DNA of 64,000 nucleotides, from NCBI GenBank assembly GCA_942490925.1, contig CALNYX010000017.1:1026191-1090190 (forward strand), given 5' to 3'. The position numbers were made by a program. Positions 34,001 through 40,000 of the stretch are shown piece by piece (position 1 is the first letter of the stretch; the number at the start of each line of letters is the position of its first letter). Source of the stretch: an uncultured Chlamydiaceae bacterium. Lineage in GTDB: Bacteria; Chlamydiota; Chlamydiia; Chlamydiales; JAAKFR01.

Positions 34001-37000
34001 GCAGCAGCTCGCTCTTCTCTTTGGATCTTGTTAAGCAATTGTGTTGCATCCGTGTAGTCAGGATGTTTGCGCAAGATTTTTAGGAGAAGCACCTTTGCCT
34101 CATCGACTTCCCCTAATTGAAAATAGAGTGTTGCAAGTGTATACTGCACATCTGGGTTGCCTGGATCAAGTGAGAGACTTTTTTCCAGTGCTTCTGCCGC
34201 ATCCCTGTAAGCTCCCATTTGCATATAAACCTTTCCCAAATGATAGAGATAGCGCGCATTATCAGGATCCTCCTTAACCAAAGCCTCCCATTGTAAAACC
34301 GCTTTATTTAACTCCCCTCTCTGTTCATCTGTTTCTGCCTGCTTAATTCTGCTTTGGGCAGCCTCTTCTTGTTTTTGCTGCATCAGAAAATGTTTTTTCT
34401 TTTTTGTGGCCCGCAGCCCTTCGTCTGCATCACGATATTCAGGTTGTGAGCTTAAGATCTCTTGAAAAAGGACTTCCGCCTCATCGAGATGATCTGTCCA
34501 GAGGTAGACATAACCGAGCATTAGCTTAGCATCTGAATTTTCTGGATTGAGCTTGATGCTAAGTTTAAGAAACTTCTCAGCTTTTGCATACTCTTTGAGA
34601 CGAGCATAATTCCACCCCATGTGATAGAGGTAGCTTGCATTATCAGGCTCGCTTTTGTTTAGCTCTGTCCAAAAAGCCAAAGCTTGTCTGTAATCACCGC
34701 TTTTTTCTGCTTGAATAGCTTTTTCAACCTGCTCTGAAACAGTCGATTGAGGTGTTTTGACTTCTGTCTTTGAGTTGCAGCCAGCAGACAATATCAACAA
34801 GTTGATCAAGAAGAATTTAAAGAGCTGACGCATTGAAAAAAACACTTTGTATCTTATATATAGGGGATATAACATTTTTTTGTGATTTTTGGCATGATTT
34901 CCTTCCTTTGCATCGACGAAAGCAATAGCCTTGAGCCCCTTTTGTCTGAATATGCATCTCATTTTGGTTTTTCCATTGAGGTCTCTTCTGACCCCAAGAG
35001 CGTGAAAAATAAGAGTGGATATGATGCTTTTTTGCTTGTTGAGAGCAAAAAATTTGAAAATTTTGCGTCATTTTTGAATCCAGAAAGCTGCAATGTTGTC
35101 TTTTCTAATAAACACCCTACCTCTAAAGAATTTAGGCAACTTAGAGCAGATGCTTCTGTCACCTACCTTTTGGAACAGCCAATTGTAAAAACAGAGATTG
35201 TGGCGCTTTTACGTACCCTCTGCTCTCCCGGGCAAGCAGAAGAGATTGACCTTCCTCCAGAGTTGATGGAAAAGTATACCTCGACTCTCAGTGAAAAAAT
35301 CGAAGAACTCGAGGGTCTTGTCCAGAAAATCCATGCACATGGTGGTGAAAAAAAGCCTCTTGTAGACCTACGAAATGTTGTGCACAAAATCGCAGGGAGT
35401 GCTGGAGGGTATGGCTTTACAGAGGCTGGAAAACTGTGTAAACAGCAGGAACTTTACTTGCAAGGTCTCTATGGAGGAGAAACTATAACTATTTCTCCCA
35501 AAGAGATTGATACAGCTAACGTTAAATTTTTGCGAGCACTGCGTTTGAATTTTCAAAAGCTCTGTTTGCAAGAGCCTAAAGTTCGGGAGAACAAGATTCC
35601 GACTAAACCCTCCTCCCCCGTAACTAAAACTCCTGCCCAAGTCCAAACACCTTCAACTAAGATCTCACTGCTCTGTTTTGATGAAGCACACAAACTTCGC
35701 CCAGTATTGGATGAGTATGCAAACTTACTGCGCTTTTCTTATCAATCAGTAACAAATGTTGAGCAACTAGAGAAGCAATATAGTCAGAAGAATTATGACG
35801 GTGTTTTAATTGTTGAAGGTCCGCAGCTTTCGGATCCCAAACAGCTAATTGAAAGACTTAGTCAAAATAAACACTCTCCACTTGCTCTGATTGCTGATAA
35901 GTGTAGAAAAGCAGAAGTTTTTCGAGAGCTAAAAACCAAGTATGCTGTTGATTATGTCCTTGAACAGCCTGTGATTAAAGAGGAATTTCTCGCCCTTCTG
36001 CGTCAGCTCTGCCATATGAATGGTCAGTCTCATAGAGATGAAGAGTCATTGCCTAAAGAACTGATCGAAAAATATACTTCAAGTATCTATGACAAAATTG
36101 AGCGTATTGAAGAGTTGATTCAAGCATCACATGCAAACTCAGGCGAAAAGGAGCCTCTTGCCACTCTTAGAAATGAAGTACATAAAATTGCAGGAAGTGC
36201 TGGTGGTTATGGATTTTCTGAAGCAGGGCAACTCTGCAAAATGCACGAGCTCTATCTACAAGAAATTTATAGTTCGGAACCCATTATTACCCCGCAAAAA
36301 GAAATTGATGCAGCTAATGTCAAATTTCTACGTAAATTGCGTTTGAACTTTCAAAAATTGACAATCAAAACCATCGCCGACATTTCGACCCAGATTAAAA
36401 AATCTGCGTCCGCCCAAGAACAAAAAACACGCCCCCTTTCAAATATATTTCTAGTCCTTATTTCAACGGATTTAAACATTATCAGGATATTTCAAAAACT
36501 CGCAAAACGGTACCACCTTGCCTTTGAAGTCGAAAGTGATCCTCAGCACTTTCTAGACAAATGGGAGGACATTAATACCCCGCCCTTTACAATAATTGTA
36601 GAAGAGCACTACCCGTTTACAACCTATACAGGGCAATCACTATTCAAACTTCTGCGTGAAAAATGGAAAGAGGTCTCTCCAACTTTTGGAATCATGACGC
36701 AAAGTGATGAACTCGATAAACGGATAGAATGGATCGCTGAGGGGATAGATCTAGTCTTGAAAAAACCCCTTGCAGAGCAGAATATCATCGATATTTTTGA
36801 GCAACTCAGCGCACAAAAAGAGATGCACAATATCAAAGCTTTAATTGTAGATGACGATGAGGATGTTGGACTTGTTGAAAAAAATACGCTTGAGCAAATT
36901 GGTATACAAGCTGTTTACCTACAAGATGAGACCAAGCTGCTAAGGTCGCTTGAAGAGATTAACCCGCATCTTTTGATTCTTGATATCAACTTACCACACT

Positions 37001-40000
37001 ATAATGGAAGAGAGCTTTTACAAACACTACGTTCTGATATACGATTTCGTGATTTAATTATTGTTGTTGTCACAGCAGTCACTGAAGAGGGTTTTGATCA
37101 ATGGGCCTATGCTGAAAACTGTGATGAAATTGTTCACAAACCTATCGATACGGCACATCTCCAATCACGTATTGCAAACCTTGTTCATCGAAATATTTCA
37201 TCTCAAGAAATTTCCCGTCTTGACCGCTACACCCACCTCTATACCAAGGATTATTTCTTAGGAAAATTCTCAAATTTTCTTCTTTTGCAATCCCCTAAAA
37301 CTCACTTGAGCTTTCTATTTTTAGAAATCGATTTGTGGAATAAAATCTCTAAAATTCTAAATCCAATTGAAATTAAAGAGATCTTAATTCTTGTTACAGA
37401 ACTTATTAGAACACATCTTCAAAAAAGCGCGCTTTATGGATACATGGGCGAGGGGCGCTTTGCACTCCTTTTTCAAAACATTATGGGTGGAGAGCTTGAG
37501 TTTCTTATTAGTCGTTTTTTTGAAGCTGCCAAAAAAAAACTCTGGCTCTCTGGAAGAGAAGAGCTCAAAACAACTCTCTGTGTAGGAGCTACGCTCTTTT
37601 CTGTTGGGCAAATTGATATGGATACGATCCTATCTCAAACTGAGGAAGTTTTACACCAAGCTATGGATATTGGACCTGGACACTTTGAATTAAAACGTCT
37701 GTCTGCTTCTACAGGTGATGAAGCGCAGCAGCAAGTGATTTTAGTCGATGATGATCCAGACCTCTGTCGCGTGGTTGAACATGCCTTTAGCAATCATGGA
37801 ATTGCAATTCAGACATTTTCAACAGGTGAGGATGCAATTAACTTTTTTGCAAAACTAGAGAAGTTGGAAGACAATACACTTATTATCCTCGATAGGATCT
37901 TGCCAGATCGAGATGGATTGACAATCTTACGCCTGTTAAATGAGAAGTTCCCAGGCAGAATTAAAGCGATTTTCCTTTCCTCCTTGACGACCGAAAAAGA
38001 TGTCCTTGAGGGACTGAAAATAGGGGCTCTGGACTATATTACAAAACCTTTTAGTATTTCTGTTCTATTACAAAAAGCCTTTATCTTACTGAGACAATGA
38101 AAATTAATATCATCGGAATTATTGAATACCTAATTGTTTTTATAGCAGTCCTCTATATCTTCATTCTAAAAATCCGCCAAGATCGAAAAGTTCGTAAAAT
38201 CCAAGCGACTAAGGAGAAACTCAAAACGCTTTTTGATGAACTTTTAATTGAAAAGACGGCTCTAGAAAAAGTTGACTGGCTTCCTTCACCACGCGACTTT
38301 CTCCCACTTCTAATTGTATTAGAAGAATTTACAGAGAAGTTTGGTACGGACAGCACATGGGATGGAATCAAACACCACTTTACCATCAAGCACCTTAGAC
38401 CATGGGCACTCAAACACTACCGTTCTAAACTCTGGAACAGACGTAATCTTTCAGCACGGATTTTTTTACTCTTCCCCCTACCAGAAGATCTCGACTGTAT
38501 TTGTCACTTTCTCAAAGATCGGGATTTTTATATTCGGATGGTTGCAGTTGAAGCGCTTGGAAGACTCAAAACCAGCGCTGTTGTTCCCATCATATTGCAG
38601 TATATGGCCAAAGAACCTCCAAAAGCCCGTTTTATCTATAGATATGCTTTAAACCTACTCCCCTTTGAGCTTTTCGATATCGTTGTTGATGTTTACAAAA
38701 AAAGCAAAAGTTTAGCTGTGCGCCTTTGCTGCTTAGATGTTTTATCTCACGGTTTTCATCATGACATCTATCCAATTGTCCACCAAAGCCTACACTCTAA
38801 ATACCCTCAAATTCGTTATATGGTGGCAAAAATCTTAGCTAATCTCCGCTCTGACAAAGCTCTACAAGATCTTATCTCTCTTTTGAAAGATCCTACAGCT
38901 AAGGTGCGCGCAATGGCAGTCGAATCATTAGGTGATTTTCACCATGAAAAAGCTTTTGAAAAAGTAGGCGAAATGATCCATGATAAAGTCTACGACGTGA
39001 GGCTAAAAGCGGCGTTTGCAATGCTCAAATATGGAAAGAGGGGGATCCAGTTCTTAGAGCTACAAGACAGCGACTTATACCCAAAAGCTCATGAAGTTGC
39101 CCGTTTTGTCCTGACTCTACCATAAGAAACCACTGATATGCGTGAATTCATCTTAGGCTACCAAAATAGCGTCATCATTTATTATTGGGCCATTAACGGT
39201 TTTTTCATTTTCTTATTGATCAATGCTTTTTTCGTGATTTTTTCGCGTTATAAGAAGTTCGAGTCTCAACGGTTAGATATCTTGCACCAGGTTGAAGATC
39301 TGCCCTCTATTGGCATTGTAATCCCCTCATACAACGAAGAAGATAATGTTATTTTTGCCATTCATGCACTGTTAAATCTCTCATATCGCAATAAACAAAT
39401 AACAATTGTCAATGACGGCTCCTCAGACAATTCGATGGAAATTTTAAAATCGACCTTCAAGCTCACCCCTGTTCATCGCGCCTATGTGGAAACAATTCCA
39501 ACTGTTCCAGTTAAGACCTACTACCATAGCCTTCTCTATCCTGAGCTTGTGGTCATAGACAAAGATAATGGAGGTCGAGCAGACGCAATTAATGTTGGAA
39601 TCAATGCGAGTAAAACGGACTTTATATTGACGCTCGACGCTGACACGATTATCGATAATAACGAAATGAGCCGCATGCTCCGCTACATTTTTACCAAACC
39701 CTCTGTTGCTGGATTTGGTGCAAGTGTTCGTGTTGCAAATGGATGCCATGTAGCACTGCGAGGCATCACACATGTAGGGTTTCCAAAAACCTATTTTGGA
39801 GGCATTCAAGCTGTTGAATATCTACGTGCTTTTTATCTTGGGCGAATGGGTTTCGATCCTCTAGGAGGCTCTCTCATTATTTCTGGGGCTTTCTCGATCT
39901 ACGAAACAGATTATGTTCGCAAGATTGGAGGGTTTGATACTCATACCCTTGGCGAAGATATGGAGCTCTGTACGCATCTCAAAAAGATGCGTTATCTTGA

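Follow-up and report, generated by a model that had tools for sequence, protein, structure and literature searches.

The present analysis concerns a long regulatory protein encoded in a stretch of 64,000 nucleotides (positions 1,026,191 to 1,090,190 of contig CALNYX010000017.1, assembly GCA_942490925.1; hereafter the window, with position 1 as its first letter) from the genome of an organism deposited as an uncultured Chlamydiaceae bacterium (GTDB lineage Chlamydiales; JAAKFR01). The source assembly has a size of 2.29 Mb and is 99.4% complete. The regulator is encoded by a single open reading frame (ORF) on the forward strand, which runs from 34882 or 34894 to 38100 and gives a product of 1068 amino acids when the ATG at 34894 is taken as start. 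It combines histidine phosphotransfer (Hpt) domains, receivers and a GGDEF-fold domain, and is followed by genes for a HEAT-repeat protein and for a membrane-bound glycosyltransferase of family 2 (GT2). The features of the locus are collected in Table 1.

Table 1. Features of the regulator gene and its neighbourhood, in window positions (aa, amino acids; psREC, pseudo-receiver; REC, receiver; TM, transmembrane; TPR, tetratricopeptide repeat).
Feature	Position	Strand	Residues and remarks
Whole regulator ORF	34894..38100	+	1068 aa; (psREC-Hpt)x2 - psREC - REC1 - degenerate GGDEF - REC2
Pseudo-receiver A	34894..35229	+	aa 1-112; Glu50 (35041) for phospho-acceptor Asp; Gln for conserved Lys
Hpt domain A	35230..35562	+	aa 113-223; His164 at 35383-35385, motif VHKIAGSAGGYGF
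Linker joining the copies	35563..35661	+	aa 224-256; 33 residues, P/T/K-rich, in frame
Pseudo-receiver B	35662..36021	+	aa 257-376; Glu308 (35815)
Hpt domain B	36022..36360	+	aa 377-489; His430 at 36181-36183, invariant in the family
Third pseudo-receiver	36448..36828	+	aa ~519-645; Glu570 (36601) at acceptor position; Lys present
Receiver 1, canonical	36835..37215	+	aa 648-774; D654/D655, D697 (36982), T727, K749
Degenerate GGDEF-fold domain	37219..37665	+	aa 776-924; YMGEGRF for RxGG(D/E)EF; RxxD, substrate and metal residues lost
Receiver 2, canonical	37735..38076	+	aa 948-1061; D953/D954, D1000 (37891), S1030, K1051
HEAT-repeat protein	38097..39125	+	342 aa; N-terminal TM helix aa 1-29; start overlaps regulator stop by 4 nt (ATGA)
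Processive membrane GT2 synthase	39138..40568	+	476 aa; QRTRW at aa 316; PgaC/BcsA-related
Nucleotide-sugar dehydrogenase (TviB/WecC-like) and NAD epimerase	40568..42837	+	overlapping codons link both genes to the operon
Divergent TPR lipoprotein	31777..34833	-	1018 aa; C-terminal beta-barrel-like region ending in Phe

Domain anatomy of the regulator

Pfam analysis of the regulator returned two Hpt stretches, two receiver stretches (residues ~646-766 and 948-1061) and one weak GGDEF stretch (residues 776-924). This agrees with the initial annotation of the window, in which the tandem duplicates, the codons of the Hpt histidines and two intact receivers around a GGDEF fold had been recognised. 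All the domains named there were recovered, while a third pseudo-receiver (residues ~519-645) had been overlooked. The annotated lack of a DNA-binding domain was confirmed as well, none being found in the regulator by Pfam and NCBIfam scans. A structure of the regulator core (812 residues, from the second copy of the duplicated part onward) was predicted by AlphaFold from a 13-sequence alignment, with a mean predicted local distance difference test score (pLDDT) of 80. The model has a predicted template modelling score of 0.37 and was read for the folds of the single domains. In Foldseek searches, the core matched best chains of PleD (E 1e-20), followed by WspR; the GGDEF domain of SadC was also matched.

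The duplication that had been proposed for positions 34894-35562 and 35662-36360 was analysed by aligning residues 1-223 with residues 257-489. The identity was 48% by BLASTP (E 1e-72), 51% in a global protein alignment and 55.6% at the DNA level, and the duplication was thereby confirmed. The Hpt halves of the two copies are 67% identical, the pseudo-receiver halves 35%. The histidine codons predicted at 35383 and 36181 proved to be exact and correspond to H164 and H430. Both Hpt domains (PF01627) were detected with 47 bits over two Pfam stretches and display the HK..G motif, and four helices are seen in the AlphaFold model. Their histidine is invariant in the 13-sequence family alignment, and both domains are predicted to accept and donate phosphoryl groups.

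The approximately 112 residues that precede each Hpt domain gave no Pfam match. In the AlphaFold model, the stretch in front of the Hpt domain displays the (beta-alpha)5 order with a pLDDT of about 86 and is directly followed by the four-helix Hpt bundle. The five-fold alternation of strand and helix was obtained for all three pseudo-receivers, with pLDDT values of about 80-88. Comparison by hhalign with receivers gave a probability of 93% for the third pseudo-receiver; for the first one, the match was colinear and weak (4.7%). A distant homologue (P0013) carries a fully canonical receiver in place of the first pseudo-receiver. From this homologue and from the predicted fold, the domains in front of each Hpt are considered as degenerate receivers. 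The phospho-acceptor aspartate is missing from all three pseudo-receivers, where Glu50, Glu308 and Glu570 are found instead, and this glutamate is conserved across the chlamydial family. In the family alignment, the two pseudo-receivers preceding an Hpt domain (E50, E308) also show glutamine or threonine at the site of the conserved lysine. One may speculate that the pseudo-receivers with conserved glutamate serve the Hpt domains as docking modules in a locked state.

Receivers 1 and 2 (PF00072) are of a different kind. They were detected with 137.6 bits over two Pfam stretches, and the acidic pair, the acceptor aspartate, the threonine or serine and the lysine are all present. These catalytic residues are invariant or nearly so among the 13 aligned members of the family.

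The domain located between the two canonical receivers has a GGDEF fold (PF00990), with a score of 31 bits against a cut-off of 23.8, while intact domains reach 128-133 bits. It was described as dead in the initial annotation, and alignments with TpbB and with an intact homologue (P0014) lead to the same result: active site (A-site), metal- and substrate-binding residues and the RxxD inhibitory site (I-site) are all lost. FIDSD is replaced by FLEID, FKEIND by WNKISK, the RESD of the I-site by QKSA, and RLGGDEF by YMGEGRF. The GG(D/E)EF loop is absent, with GEGRF of the regulator aligned to GGDEF or GGEEF. The metal and substrate residues (DxD...K..ND) are lost over the region where FIDSDRFKEIND of TpbB aligns to FLEIDLWNKISK, and the QKSA occupies the place of the RxxD five residues before the GGDEF loop. 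With these three sites lost, the regulator is, as judged from its sequence, not a cyclase.

The decay of this domain is graded among the relatives. A homologue from a high-GC contig (L027) carries an intact domain with GGEEF and an RTED I-site (133 bits), and another one (L125) reads GGAEF with RxxD present. GG[DE]EF was found in none of the chlamydial long-form members examined. Some of these A-site-dead members retain RxxD, namely L196 and L197 (RKKD, RKTD) and L203 (RSRD), and in the clade of the window both A-site and I-site are gone. The GGDEF domain of the regulator would thus be the fossil of an ancestral diguanylate cyclase, through which cyclic di-GMP (c-di-GMP) is predicted to be neither made nor sensed via the canonical sites. 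It probably retains a structural, dimerisation or docking role.

A gene with so many losses could also be a decaying relic, or an artefact of assembly or fusion, and be functionless. Key residues are indeed gone from three receivers and from the GGDEF domain, and there is a 633-residue record of the regulator (P0002), on a 7-kb contig, that is frameshifted near residue 623. Against this stand the 1068 codons which stay open, the complete set of catalytic residues in two receivers and the presence of both Hpt histidines. As the two copies are just 51% identical, a collapse or duplication by the assembly is impossible. Moreover, the degenerate positions, including the glutamate at the acceptor site, are conserved through the chlamydial family, which indicates selection. 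A functionless gene is thus considered highly improbable. The P0002 record itself stems from a contig of 7,052 bp; it includes both psREC-Hpt copies and is identical to the regulator up to residue ~623, after which the sequences part and the record ends. It has the appearance of a copy with a frameshift or truncation, assembled separately from this organism or from one very closely related to it.

The synthase operon and its conservation

The HEAT gene is translationally coupled to the regulator gene and separated from the GT2 gene by 12 nt. The GT2 protein displays one N-terminal and several C-terminal TM helices, and BcsA is its top solved relative. PgaC_IcaA (TIGR03937) was the top NCBIfam match, with 125.8 bits against an equivalog cut-off of 422. 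Neither a PgaD/IcaD partner nor a PgaB/IcaB deacetylase was found in the locus by Pfam. On the other side of the regulator, 60 bp (34834-34893) separate its start from that of the divergent TPR lipoprotein, so the promoters of both genes would overlap. This lipoprotein is a probable outer-membrane exporter. The dehydrogenase and epimerase genes are part of the operon only in the window; they are located on the opposite strand in one related locus (L022) and are missing from three others (L023, L024, L025). Due to this variable placement, the relatives may differ in how the substrate is supplied, and perhaps in the polymer itself.

Protein searches with the regulator identified homologues of about 800 residues in metagenome-assembled genomes of 'Chlamydiales bacterium' and in Criblamydia sequanensis, with 27-51% identity; about 76% of the query is covered, the homologues having a single psREC-Hpt module in place of two. 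A profile scan of 401 Chlamydiota genomes gave full-length or near full-length members (at least 300 bits) in about 36 of them (~9%), distributed over many families, and none in Chlamydia proper. The regulator is thus not unique to the source organism. In most cases, the homologous gene stands immediately in front of those for a one-TM HEAT protein and a processive GT2 synthase. In a tree of the psREC-Hpt modules, the two copies of the window are sisters (86/88) within a well-supported clade that also contains the single modules of the closest relatives, and the in-frame duplication is therefore lineage-specific.

Other forms of Hpt amplification were met in the family. Two loci (L023, L025) harbour an additional stand-alone psREC-Hpt gene just upstream of the 800-residue gene, and these modules form a clade of their own (100/99). 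Separate psREC-Hpt ORFs of about 250 residues were detected in several Chlamydiota genomes. A metagenomic relative (L117) shows the order Hpt-REC-Hpt-REC. In another chlamydial family, a protein of 1158 residues (L203; G099:C1:55400-59100, ORF 126-3599) consists of a receiver, four tandem Hpt domains and a psREC-REC-GGDEF-REC part in which the GGDEF domain is degenerate. Each of its four Hpt domains carries HK(I/M)(A/S)GSAGSYG. In the relatives, Hpt amplification thus arose repeatedly and independently, up to four tandem domains.

The order TPR, regulator, HEAT and GT2 is kept in four chlamydial loci (L022-L025), with overlapping or abutting genes. The conserved gene order extends to Criblamydia, where the identity of the regulator goes down to 27-30%. 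Among 59 GT2 matches in Chlamydiota, 26 are preceded on the same strand, 1.0-1.15 kb upstream, by a gene ending in a receiver of the type of receiver 2. Of these genes, 11 encode the long form and 15 a single receiver, the latter scoring 108-157 bits against the receiver-2 part of the family model (one of them, L205, was inspected). None of the remaining receivers in the source genome attains an E value of 1e-30. Several more chlamydial regulators are located within 10 kb of a GT2 gene in other orientations. About twenty of the chlamydial GT2 matches display one in-frame stop (TAG, TAA or TGA) in the aligned span, which may correspond to an overrun of the gene end, a sequencing error or a pseudogene.

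The GT2 and not the HEAT protein, for which the homologue search gave 7 relatives, was used as query to follow the locus beyond Chlamydiota. Among the candidates scored, more than 7,800 proteins belong to the GT2 family at E < 1e-40, many of them from Gemmatimonadales and some fused to YaiO. Many of the homologues (P0153-P0246) have about 711 residues and are named 'YaiO family outer membrane protein' in the source records, which suggests fusions of the synthase with the YaiO barrel, or a merge by gene calling. The high-GC contig mentioned above (L027) encodes a YaiO barrel, a lone receiver, a regulator homologue of 797 residues, HEAT and GT2, the latter being 37% identical to the GT2 of the window over 440 residues (E 1e-117). 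On a Gemmatimonadales contig, a 310-residue Hpt-REC protein stands before HEAT and GT2, and both its Hpt and its receiver resemble those of the regulator. In a Balneolia genome, the succession is YaiO, histidine kinase, lone receiver, HEAT and GT2.

A census was made on 80 metagenomic loci with GT2 homologues, using hidden Markov models built from the alignments of this analysis and a Pfam check, by which 10 proteins were confirmed. Of the 48 loci with at least 2.6 kb of upstream sequence, 43 have HEAT directly upstream of GT2. A receiver ending at most 150 bp from the HEAT start on the same strand was found in 20 of these 43 loci, and further upstream in 8. An adjacent receiver is present in nearly all loci whose GT2 is closest to that of the window (35-41% identity). 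The upstream proteins range from a lone receiver over Hpt-REC to REC-Hpt-REC-GGDEF-REC, with intact or decayed GGDEF. The receiver-HEAT-GT2 cassette order was met in the window as well as in L022-L025, L027, L114 and L115. Cyanobacterial proteins of about 790 residues (P0015-P0020) were rejected as orthologues: they have another architecture (REC-Trans_reg_C-Hpt-REC-GGDEF) with intact GGDEF, and neither HEAT nor GT2 nearby.

The element common to every version of the regulator is the C-terminal receiver adjoining HEAT. Since every short form contains it, receiver 2 is the likely output domain. Being the conserved neighbour of HEAT and GT2 across phyla, with or without Hpt and GGDEF domains, it is proposed as the switch of the system. 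A different view would be that phosphorylation drives oligomerisation via the GGDEF fold and that the regulator acts elsewhere, for instance on the developmental cycle, a protease or a transcription factor; sharing a transcript with the synthase would then serve just to match the protein amounts. PleD and WspR are known to dimerise or oligomerise upon phosphorylation, the core of the regulator is PleD-like as seen in the Foldseek search, and some regulators of the family do not adjoin GT2 (L026, L110, L111). However, the neighbourhood contains no other target that is conserved, and lone proteins of the receiver-2 type stand before HEAT and GT2 without any oligomerisation or output domain. We therefore regard such a target as rather improbable and retain receiver 2 as the candidate switch of the synthase.

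Signalling proteins of the source genome

Chlamydiae are usually pictured as almost devoid of histidine kinase or c-di-GMP signalling (PMC4989314). An inventory of kinases and active diguanylate cyclases in the source genome revealed eight kinases with HisKA and HATPase domains and one intact cyclase. In addition, nine receiver domains were found, including CtcC (NtrC-like)- and OmpR-like regulators, three single receivers, one receiver-histidine kinase fusion (REC-HK) and one C-terminal hybrid kinase. That two-component proteins are very rare in Chlamydiae, as had been assumed, holds for Chlamydiaceae and not for the source genome. Similarly, the label of orphan regulator holds within the window, where no kinase is present as had been noted (the closest one is encoded ~33 kb past the window end), and fails for the genome as a whole.

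Exactly two Hpt domains are encoded in the genome, both of them in the regulator. The sole C-terminal hybrid kinase (C13:7148-9232, minus strand) has 694 residues and the order PAS-PAS-HisKA-HATPase-REC. Its gene is located between leuCD and a major facilitator superfamily transporter gene, on a 21-kb contig of chromosomal appearance. As a hybrid kinase needs an Hpt domain, and the only ones of the genome are in the regulator, this kinase is the best candidate for the phosphate donor. In three relatives, a kinase of 712-747 residues and a receiver of 135-139 residues are encoded beside the locus, and the hybrid kinase on C13 and its receiver are the top matches to them. Orthology of this locus-adjacent kinase to a kinase of the source genome is not claimed, the best-hit evidence being confined to the catalytic core. 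The other non-chlamydial relatives examined have a PAS kinase adjoining the locus, two of them also with single receivers.

The same inventory could be taken as a sign that the regulator is mainly a general Hpt hub between several kinases and other response regulators, with a secondary role for its position next to the synthase. It contributes the only Hpt domains of a 99%-complete genome in which three stand-alone receivers and a REC-HK are present, conservation between the duplicates is highest in the Hpt halves (67% vs 35%), and Hpt amplification is recurrent, either as separate genes (L023, L025) or in tandem (four in L203). This would not account for the linkage to HEAT and GT2 throughout the phylum and across phyla, which includes Hpt-free short forms made of receiver 2 only, nor for the translational coupling to the HEAT gene. 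A predominant hub function is thus judged unlikely, although slightly less so than an output through oligomerisation. A hub role is compatible with control of the synthase by the regulator, and the two are not exclusive.

Regarding c-di-GMP, 146 of the 401 Chlamydiota genomes encode a GGDEF domain; those of the genus Chlamydia all lack it. The sole intact cyclase of the source genome (C17:781510-782328, plus strand; 263-272 residues) is of the REC-like-GGDEF type with RIGGDEF and a RRHD I-site. A GAF-HD-GYP protein (C17:671619-670147, minus strand) has both HD and GYP intact. Neither EAL nor PilZ domains are encoded in the genome, and no c-di-GMP effector was recognised in it. A cyclase of about 300 residues of the same REC-like-GGDEF type is present in 20 of the 23 genomes of the window's family, the regulator in about 7 of the 23.

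As the genome has one intact cyclase and one GAF-HD-GYP protein, but neither PilZ nor EAL and hence no recognised effector, the degenerate GGDEF domain might be a receptor that binds c-di-GMP or GTP like those of PelD, PopA and PdeA, and link the synthase to the sole intact cyclase, with the receivers only modulating the response. The known synthase-dependent Bcs, Pel, Alg and Pga systems are gated by c-di-GMP, and RxxD is found beside a dead A-site in L196, L197 and L203. In the regulator and its clade, however, RxxD is lost (QKSA), and the positions for binding of guanine, phosphate and metal are substituted. The occurrence of the stand-alone cyclase in 20 of 23 genomes against about 7 for the regulator shows that the two are not coupled, and many HEAT-GT2 loci have regulators free of GGDEF. 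A receptor function is given only a small chance, comparable to that of an output through oligomerisation. It is plausible, as the initial annotation had suggested, that the synthase is controlled independently of any c-di-GMP produced or bound by the GGDEF domain, in view of the conserved regulator-HEAT-GT2 order and of the GGDEF-free regulators elsewhere.

A proposed phosphorelay and its relation to known systems

The presence of two Hpt domains and two intact receivers, together with the lack of a kinase and of a DNA-binding domain, points to a multi-step phosphorelay with output by protein contact. The interpretation that we favour, by a modest margin over its being wrong, is that the regulator is the long, GGDEF-dead form of a family of Hpt/receiver proteins at the end of a His-Asp-His-Asp phosphorelay, and that phosphorylated receiver 2 contacts HEAT and/or GT2, the GGDEF domain being left as a fossil. 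The first donor would be a kinase that carries a receiver of its own (D1), the hybrid kinase on C13 being the best candidate; its phosphate would go to His164 and/or His430 (H2). From the Hpt domains, it would be passed to Asp697 of receiver 1 and/or Asp1000 of receiver 2 (D2). Once phosphorylated, receiver 2 would contact the cytoplasmic HEAT domain and/or GT2, by which polymer synthesis would be switched on or off. The polymer would then be exported through the divergently encoded TPR-barrel lipoprotein, while the GGDEF domain would persist for a structural purpose or as a spacer. Domain anatomy, the state of the key residues, synteny and distribution were observed directly as described above; every phosphotransfer step, the choice of the kinase, the contact of receiver 2 with HEAT or GT2 and the sign of regulation are inferred.

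Several observations weigh against this interpretation. Gene order is the sole ground on which the contact of receiver 2 with HEAT and GT2 is proposed, and 15 of the 43 metagenomic HEAT-GT2 loci have no nearby receiver. Some chlamydial regulators are located apart from GT2, are divergent to it or have none locally (e.g. L026). The candidate kinase is encoded on a contig other than that of the regulator, and the kinases beside the locus in the relatives share just 28-34% identity with it, over the catalytic core and the receiver only. The degenerate GGDEF sequence is conserved within the chlamydial family (DPxTGLY, SGGExEF, WLxGRE) and must therefore have some function, which is not specified in the proposed scheme. 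Finally, the genome encodes an intact diguanylate cyclase and an HD-GYP protein without a recognised effector, so that an input of c-di-GMP somewhere in the system is possible.

The psREC-REC1-GGDEF core of the regulator resembles PleD of Caulobacter, a cyclase with the order REC-REC'-GGDEF, and WspR: one true and one adaptor-type receiver precede the GGDEF domain. Unlike these proteins, the regulator has lost A-site, substrate residues and I-site, and the order of true and pseudo-receiver is inverted. It also carries the N-terminal (psREC-Hpt)x2 part and an additional C-terminal receiver. A dead GGDEF domain is also found in PelD of Pseudomonas, PssE of Listeria and PopA, the first two being encoded together with an exopolysaccharide machine and serving to activate polysaccharide synthesis. 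These proteins bind c-di-GMP at a retained RxxD, whereas the regulator has QKSA; some chlamydial relatives keep RxxD.

The succession of a receiver fold and an HK..G Hpt bundle is reminiscent of the D1-H2 modules of ArcB, BvgS, TorS and BarA, and of the free Hpt proteins LuxU, HptB and Ypd1. In contrast to the unorthodox kinases, no kinase core is attached to the regulator and the module is present twice. Furthermore, the receiver in front of each Hpt cannot play the role of D1, since the acceptor aspartate is replaced by glutamate and the lysine is lost. Tandem Hpt domains in one polypeptide are known from ChpA of Pseudomonas, a multi-Hpt protein of the CheA type, and multiple Hpt domains are treated in a survey of CheA architectures (doi 10.1101/2023.09.19.558490). 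The regulator differs from CheA by the lack of the P3-P5 domains, and the arrays (two in the window, four in L203) arose repeatedly in a family of response regulators.

The locus as a whole shares with PgaABCD/IcaADBC and BcsA-type systems a membrane GT2 with QxxRW, a small or one-TM partner, and an exporter combining TPR and barrel (PgaA, BcsC). It differs from Pga, Ica and Bcs in that the partner is a HEAT-repeat protein and not PgaD or BcsB, that PilZ and deacetylase are lacking, and that the regulator is a phospho-receiver protein. Literature on chlamydial GGDEF proteins and c-di-GMP, on Hpt with degenerate GGDEF, on YaiO with glycosyltransferases, and on HEAT with receiver and polysaccharide synthase gave no account of this system. 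The receiver-HEAT-GT2 cassette thus appears to be undescribed. Specific to the locus of the window are the lineage-specific in-frame duplication of psREC-Hpt and the fully decayed GGDEF domain.

Taken together, the data allow a broader and more tentative proposal, which we consider possible but somewhat less likely than the opposite. The receiver-HEAT-GT2 cassette would represent an unrecognised and widespread class of synthase-dependent exopolysaccharide systems, gated post-translationally by a phosphorylated CheY-like receiver via a membrane HEAT adaptor and not by c-di-GMP. The chlamydial long form would record the transition, in which a relay-controlled cyclase lost first its A-site and then its I-site, leaving the receiver as the sole switch. 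Repeated amplification of the Hpt module would serve to tune the relay, by buffering phosphate or by offering separate entry points for several kinases.

If the contact between receiver, HEAT and synthase is real, control of the synthase would be unlike the c-di-GMP paradigm of Bcs, Pel, Alg and Pga, and many phyla would have it in common. From active cyclase over I-site-only to fully dead domain, and with one, two or four Hpt domains, the family moreover forms a natural series in which the retirement of a domain and the rewiring of a phosphorelay can be followed. In addition to its minimal c-di-GMP tool-kit, the source chlamydia would possess a phosphorelay of four steps that leads to a polysaccharide synthase. 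If true, an obligate intracellular bacterium would have a polymer of its surface or matrix placed under the control of a signal. As regards the biology of chlamydiae, the locus suggests that an extracellular or envelope polymer is made under regulation and may play a part in the cycle within the amoeba or host cell.

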